64,000 nucleotides of DNA, from positions 23,312,001 to 23,376,000 of the forward strand of contig OZ024761.1 of assembly GCA_964016885.1 (NCBI GenBank). Reading direction: 5' to 3'. Of this stretch, positions 44,912 to 45,108 are shown piece after piece. Numbering within the stretch: position 1 is the stretch's first letter; every line of letters begins with the position of its first letter. Source of the stretch: Eledone cirrhosa. Taxonomy: Eukaryota. The notes under the pieces are model-generated. The model was not told the DNA's origin, searched no databases, and was given only the letters and a program-made list of their open reading frames with translations. The translations under genes and the position numbers were made by a program.

Positions 44912-45108
44912 GGAAAAAGGTATGACCCCGACGGCAGAGCTCAAGCCGTTTCGACGACTATTTCTGGATGGAAATAGTCATCGAAACGGCTTGAGGTCTG
45001 CCGTCGGGGTCATACCTTTTTCCTTTTACCCACTCTACTATTGCCCTAAGTATTGAGTACTCTGGTGCGTTATGGTCCATCTGGTTCCTTACCACAATTC
45101 CTTCGTTA
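44912..45108 (+). mobile_element. PLE-like fold-back element with half-hammerhead (family A)
   Basis: Arms 44912-44964 and 44971-45023 around loop tggatg. Each arm has GAAA-CGGC-loop-GCCG-UC. Tail has ttgagtactc and ends ttcgtta-(TA)n. Confidence 0.7.

Follow-up and report, generated by a model that had tools for sequence, protein, structure and literature searches.

Head-to-head insertions with putative half-hammerhead arms and a Penelope-like footprint in Eledone cirrhosa

Introduction

EN+ Penelope-like elements (PLEs) insert in a recognizable layout, comprising head-to-head copies of which the inverted one is 5'-truncated, a tail on one side only and a microsatellite target, with the hammerhead region located at the 3' end of the element (excerpts of PMC8557442 and PMC3846280). 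In the Hydra clade of C-terminal EN+ PLEs the hammerheads lie near the 3' ends, (TA)n is the preferred target in all but one of the families shown in the Hydra table, and the PLE tail is given as 30–40 bp long (PMC8557442, in excerpt). Type I hammerheads have also been described in PLE pLTRs, where GAAA, stem III and an NUH triplet follow each other in this order and loop 3 is palindromic (PMC4209133, in excerpt). Related small non-coding repeats are the metazoan non-LTR retrozymes, which are connected to hammerhead-bearing PLE ends (excerpts of PMC7229834 and bioRxiv 10.64898/2026.07.22.740005). With respect to mechanism, in vitro work on Poseidon_Ac (PAc) demonstrated extension of both target strands, two internal reverse transcriptase (RT) start sites that bound the tail, and insertion from an uncut RNA template, without ribozyme cleavage (PMC11167929). 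The origin of the inverted PLE ends and tails, as well as the role of the hammerhead, is stated to be open in PMC8557442 and PMC11167929.

Here we describe family A, a family of short insertions found in 64,000 nucleotides of Eledone cirrhosa DNA (GCA_964016885.1, contig OZ024761.1, positions 23,312,001 to 23,376,000, forward strand), hereafter the window. The head-to-head truncated copies, one-sided tail, microsatellite target and a hammerhead region at the 3' end, putative in family A, are common to family A and to the EN+ PLE insertions as excerpted, whereas the copies are only about 100–205 nt long, the tail measures 88 nt, the 5' ends cluster in the putative hammerhead and no open reading frame (ORF) was seen. 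The (TA)n target and a bulged TWGAG-YAC hairpin behind the hammerhead are shared with the Hydra clade, and the CGAA core with Hydra-1_Amil, Penelope-2_NV and the SK families, while stem III of family A has 5 bp and a 9-nt GAGCTC loop compared to 3–4 bp and 1–3 nt in the Hydra hammerheads listed in the excerpt of PMC8557442. With the pLTR hammerheads excerpted from PMC4209133, family A has in common the order GAAA, stem III and NUH and a palindromic loop 3, but it lacks CUGANGA as well as the 5' strands of stems I and II, and its stem III has sufficient length for folding as a monomer. Unlike the excerpted retrozymes, the four copies in the window show neither a direct tandem ribozyme array nor a complete core. 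Poseidon_Ac is similar to the model that we propose below, but belongs to another clade and host, and no fixed 5' end inside the ribozyme was reported for it (PMC11167929).

Materials and Methods

Inverted repeats in the window, which is AT-rich, animal and microsatellite-dense, were located by a masked scan. Reads were taken from two contig sets of one sample (X1 and X3) and two RAD read sets (X8 and X9), representing at most three samples and two studies.

Results and Discussion

The hairpin that the first-pass annotation had placed at 44912..45023 was confirmed. The palindrome extends over 44909-45026, with 53 of the 57 arm positions identical in the arm comparison, and its fold energy of -100.9 kcal/mol (z -17.7) was equalled by 0 of 200 shuffles. 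As a complete element, however, the 112-nt hairpin falls short, given that 88 nt more belong to it, up to 45112. In the orientation of this copy (copy A), the unit reads (TA)n, tail-less inverted arm, junction, direct copy, 88-nt tail ending in TTCGTTA, and (TA)n. The left (TA)n target occupies 44897..44910 in the sequence and is abutted by TTCCTA, the 3' end of the tail-less arm (44909..44968, minus strand). The sense 5' end of this arm lies 16 nt before GAAA, at a boundary (44968) that is also seen in the reads, and the arm carries GAAA, the 5-bp stem III, the 9-nt loop and a GTC triplet at 44930..44952 (minus strand). Two junction letters (44969..44970), private to copy A according to the read comparison, are followed on the plus strand by the tailed arm (44971..45023), which starts 12 nt before GAAA and is likely to consist of the stem II 3' strand, GAAA, stem III, GTC and the stem I 3' strand. 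The one-sided tail of about 88 nt (45024..45112, plus strand) ends in TTCGTTA, next to (TA)n, and includes a bulged hairpin with the GTATTGAGTAC motif (45032..45060, plus strand); the tail-less arm stops 6–7 nt short of this hairpin. The outer arm thus possesses extra 5' letters and the inner arm a tail, neither arm containing the other. An ORF scan revealed no frame of 120 aa or more in copy A, and only frames of 25–59 aa in the adjacent 45190-45440. The arm-tail sequence was also considered as an ORF start and rejected on account of stop codons in the frames inspected by eye.

Three further copies were identified in the window. Copy B (32607..32795, minus strand) has an anatomy like that of copy A, including a palindrome at 32685-32800 (fold energy -83.4, z -15.2). 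The similarity previously noted for 32691-32794 does not extend to the junction, which is asymmetric (16–17 nt before GAAA in one arm, 4 nt in the other). Copy C (32828..32952, plus strand) represents a second subfamily with a G immediately 5' of GAAA; its tail-less arm keeps 13 nt before GAAA and is fused directly to mid-tail. The description of a diverged copy at 32829 was correct as to the changed loop (CGGAGCTCA) and the retained stem, but this copy is not a palindrome. Copy D (about 3440..3539, plus strand), a solo tailed arm after (CT)n which was absent from the earlier annotation, lacks GAAAC and has two deletions in the tail. The head-to-head inverted 5'-truncated copy is present in copies A, B and C, whose outer ends are identical. 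Three of the four copies start with TAGGAA after (TA)n and end with GTTA before (TA)n; (TA)n is likewise found at both ends in three of the four, and in copy D at the tail end only.

The sense arms start 16 nt (A, outer), 16–17 nt (B, outer), 13 nt (C, outer), 12 nt (A, inner) and 4 nt (B, inner) before GAAA, while the inner copy of C begins mid-tail. The breakpoints proposed for mapping are thus non-random, as all five GAAAC-bearing arms start 4–17 nt before GAAA and the reads show a single boundary.

The motif GAAACGGC-N7-11-GCCGTH occurs five times in the window (32710 on the minus strand, 32753 on the plus, 32848 and 44930 on the minus, and 44983 on the plus), compared to 0.00 matches expected from 100 shuffles, and the triplet is GTC in four matches and GTA in one, so the GAAA-stem III-GUH arrangement reported at first pass stands. 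The two subfamilies retain stem III while differing in three of the nine loop bases. In the tailed arm of copy A the GAGCTC loop palindrome is broken, the loop being TTGAGGTCT. The absence of CUGANGA from the arms was also upheld: the window has 16 CTGANGA sites and two stem-checked U3-A8-type cores, but no arm has any of them next to it. The natural 5' strands are not among the letters seen, and the only pairing partner for stems I and II of an arm is its inverted copy. Rfam returned no hammerhead at the gathering score in the window; nor, within 30000-50000, did the best 150 of its 280 E-value matches include one. Matches of miRNA families to the hairpin, far under the gathering score, were attributed to the long stem.

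On sequence grounds, the arm is very likely the 3' half of a type I hammerhead from a Penelope-like element, as had been suggested. We accept this reading mainly because the family A GTC sits 26 nt upstream of the tail hairpin, the place where a cleavage site is expected. Longer or full-length copies of the family numbered zero in two metagenome-contig scans and zero in viral contigs. As the collections scanned and the supplement of PMC8557442 yielded neither a full-length copy nor one with a complete core or an ORF, we infer the ribozyme origin and place loop II by analogy. The sole match among prokaryote genomes, in Streptomyces, did not reach beyond the 22–27 nt of the motif itself and was dismissed as a coincidence. 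Fold prediction gives stem III in a solo arm a pair probability of 0.55–0.68. The half-hammerhead would be a passenger rather than a working ribozyme.

Further evidence comes from the tail. The tail motif GTAYTGAGYWC has six matches in the window compared to 0.21 expected, namely four in family A, one in an isolated fragment at 32983 and one in the tail of the element at 31044-31154, which is different from family A and carries a full CTGATGA core. The palindromes at 15997, 17183 and 48435 bear a looser form of the motif in their tails; the loose scan gave 28 matches without a chance control, many of which are unrelated. In family A and four neighbouring elements of the window the tail-less ends lie 0–7 nt before the tail hairpin. 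The hairpin itself is weak and cannot be told apart from shuffled sequence (five folds with z between -0.05 and -0.82, another with +0.63), and in copies A and B the minimum-energy fold of the tail is another hairpin.

Among published consensus sequences, as judged by eye, a similar bulged hairpin stands behind the hammerhead in Hydra-2_Amil, Hydra-2_Ajap and probably Hydra-1_Crog, and another opens Hydra-1_Ajap. It is not visible by eye at the end of the Hydra-1_Obim consensus as given, the hammerhead of which also differs from that of family A. The excerpted supplement of PMC8557442 contained no GGGGTCATAC, GGGGTCCTGAC or GTATGACCCC in matches unbroken by line ends; its two GAAACGGC matches lie within unrelated sequence. 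The family A tail, at 88 nt and on one end only, exceeds the 30–40 bp mentioned above. In all likelihood the insertion carries the footprint of a Penelope-like element, and its source is likely a Hydra-type Penelope-like 3' end or a non-coding element using the enzymes of one. The head-to-head layout itself has already been described.

The window contains several neighbouring elements of comparable layout. A second hammerhead family is represented by an arm at 45128-45186 (minus strand), which begins inside the core at GAT, and by a copy at 31020-31154, which has the full CTGATGA core at 31104, shares the tail motif and possesses an inverted tailed arm of short length. Because the former arm starts within the core and a full core stands at 31104, half-hammerheads are shown, for this family, to derive from whole ones. 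The element at 15997-16318 forms a perfect palindrome of 322 nt. Each of its arms contains CTGATGA, its stem II region is long, and its tail, which carries the hairpin motif, is one-sided; it is likely a very recent insertion. Another head-to-head element with CTGATGA in both arms (48150-48670) has its tailed arm broken by a different repeat at about 48246-48422. Two more head-to-head palindromes with one-sided tails were observed, one at 17183-17530 with a decayed core and a GAAAC-AATT-GTA half, and one at 8783-8900 with no GAAAC. At 43969 (plus strand), CTGATGA, a short stem and GAAACGTTA may constitute a minimal hammerhead whose stem III is palindromic; this candidate did not pass the stem II filter.

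The reads indicate that family A is abundant, with 25,822 of 12.5 million X8 records placed, some of them via the microsatellite alone. Between 44957 and 44969, the X8 depth drops from 5801 to 160 and the X9 depth from 5305 to 144. The family shares a 5' boundary 16–17 nt before GAAA in the reads, with no common sequence upstream. Beyond 44968, 897 X8 and 753 X9 reads, together with 178 contigs in each of X1 and X3, enter unshared sequence. The loose ends beyond this position (24 of 794 loose-end rows listed) agree at 0.43–0.47 in all four runs, their first letter being C, as in copy B, and TCATCAG, the reverse-complement core, does not occur within 30 letters of their consensus. Because only 28 of 160 X8 reads are without C at 44969 (132 carry it), the T of copy A at this position is not the family consensus. 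In the second subfamily, 3171 reads have a 9-letter loose end before 44981. Since RAD molecules end at AATT sites, one of which stands at the boundary in the second subfamily, the depth drop is partly a library effect; in addition, hairpins amplify poorly. At the GUC site there is no depth step (5304 compared to 5298 in X8), and therefore the read templates were not cut there.

A frequent joint in the reads, 45125 to 44895, leads from the tail end through a short (AT)n into a tail-less arm of the same orientation (2492 in X8, 2803 in X9; inverted joints 90 and 117), and it may reflect real arrays or a library bias. AATT-cut libraries can drop arm-to-arm fragments, which would give such a joint bias.

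The observations to be explained are the head-to-head layout, the one-sided tail, the (TA)n flanks, the fixed 3' ends and the shared 5' boundary. We lean slightly towards a model in which the two head-to-head short copies stem from separate reverse-transcription run-offs of an RNA that starts in loop II. By analogy with Poseidon_Ac, a PLE protein would nick and extend both target strands, copying from two internal sites that bound the tail. Synthesis of the tail-less arm would begin right in front of the tail hairpin, that of the tailed arm 88 nt farther along. In the least certain step, the template RNA would start inside the ribozyme, so that it would be without CUGAUGA, would not cut itself and would give short run-off cDNAs like strong-stop DNA. 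End joining, trimming one arm to a varying extent, might then unite the two cDNA ends. An RNA lacking CUGAUGA fits the missing depth step at GUC. Points against the model are the lack of a full-core parent in the collections scanned, the large stem III, the G preceding GAAA in the second subfamily, the weak tail hairpin, the long tail and the many joints from tail end to tail-less arm. Taken alone, the placement of the 5' end of the family RNA within the ribozyme is a plausible proposal that we would stop just short of calling probable. The literature searched yielded no mention of a PLE with its 5' end fixed within the hammerhead.

More tentatively, the stubs could be fossil PLE strong-stop DNA, copied from RNA beginning in loop II, with the 5' ribozyme copy dead at birth. 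RT would be primed at two hairpin-marked sites, on both strands, and would run off, after which the short cDNAs would integrate head-to-head. If this reading is true, the point where transcription begins and the two RT start sites could be located from the stubs with single-base precision. A family of high copy number that has a fixed boundary in the putative ribozyme and no step at the cleavage site may, moreover, serve as a sharp discriminator between an RNA start, a structural stop and a fold-back.

A structural stop also involves two separate cDNAs, but the boundary would result from RT stalling or falling off in a long stem II or from annealing of the two cDNAs through complementary stem II strands, which retains the first-pass idea of a breakpoint fixed by the ribozyme. 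Several CGAA-core Hydra hammerheads indeed have a 7-bp stem II (excerpt of PMC8557442), all five GAAAC-bearing arms start within the 17 nt before GAAA, and the second-family arm starts within the core, at GAT. A stall, however, ought to arise at the 3' foot of stem II rather than 16–17 nt past it, whereas the main boundary is situated outside the presumed 3' strand, at a point by which the stem has already been opened. Annealing should give a constant junction, and yet A and B differ. We consider a structural stop unlikely and favour an RNA 5' end, because at the boundary the 3' strand presumed for stem II has already been passed and no stall is expected.

The first-pass annotation attributed the palindrome to a template switch at stem II. 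In such a fold-back, the cDNA of the tailed copy would traverse the natural stem II, snap back and copy the 3' half of the ribozyme, with stem II seeding the palindrome. Self-priming has been proposed for palindromes at PLE inverted junctions (PMC3846280, in excerpt); the axis of copy A lies 15.5 nt before GAAA, A and B both have TGGA at the tip, and B and C might have arisen from an A-like hairpin by subsequent deletion. Any inverted duplication yields a 'stem II' such as that seen at the axis of copy A, so this feature, which had been put forward as support, is no evidence by itself. Arms with sense TCCA upstream should enter their own partner, but the 897 and 753 reads and the 178 contigs in each set do not, compared to 160 reads that stay in register. 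The junctions of A, B and C in the window differ, and the axes of 15997-16318 and 48435-48608 lie 72.5 and 58.5 nt, respectively, upstream of an intact CTGATGA. The second-family arm at 45128-45186 has no mirror partner, and the copied arm would need the identical TA stop each time. Given the differing junctions, the non-returning reads and the distant axes elsewhere, we disfavour a fold-back and regard it as improbable.

According to another view, a small non-autonomous DNA transposon of MITE type (arm-tail-(TA)n-arm) has the arm as its terminal inverted repeat, the resemblance to a hammerhead is chance or a relic, and A and B are junctions of neighbouring copies. The frequent tail-(AT)n-arm joints (2492 and 2803) and the variable, flank-like sequence past the 5' boundary would suit such an arrangement, even though the AATT-cut libraries may create the joint bias. 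It appears very improbable, considering that none of the four window copies shows this layout or combines a target duplication with an inverted repeat at each end, and that the same one-sided-tail anatomy and tail hairpin are found in neighbours bearing full hammerheads. Finally, we give hardly any credence to a short non-coding master that lost its CUGAUGA half long ago and passed on the boundary with no full-length member, since the retention of stem III despite changes in three of nine loop bases between subfamilies suggests continuing constraint and such a master overlaps the main model, the RNA still starting at the boundary, even if the loose-end consensus has no common upstream sequence in 30 letters, the base before GAAA in the second subfamily is atypical and non-autonomous PLE derivatives have been described (bioRxiv 10.64898/2026.07.22.740005, in excerpt).

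Trans-cleavage of hairpin RNAs by a complete copy had also been suggested. It is unlikely for hairpin copies, because the cleavage site is fully paired: in the predicted fold of the whole copy A transcript, the unpaired probability is <=0.001 at GAAA, GUC and the stem I strand, and perfect partners for the two binding arms would reach -14.8 and -17.1 kcal/mol compared to -100.9 for the hairpin. A solo tailed arm is more open (unpaired probability 0.25–0.75), and trans-cleavage is conceivable in such a model for solo arms only.

Other features of the window were observed as well. An intronless ORF at 23272-24225 (minus strand) encodes potassium-channel membrane segments, with a match to the Rfam K_chan_RES editing signal and the S6 motif FTVP, where PVP is usual in potassium channels. 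The fold-backs at 13539-13619, 50218-50347 and 33849-34597 originate from inverted pairs of a common short repeat, which we take to be SINE-like. Tandem arrays were recognized from repeated translations at 60437-61881 (unit of ~143 nt) and 57742-58611 (unit of ~117 nt).
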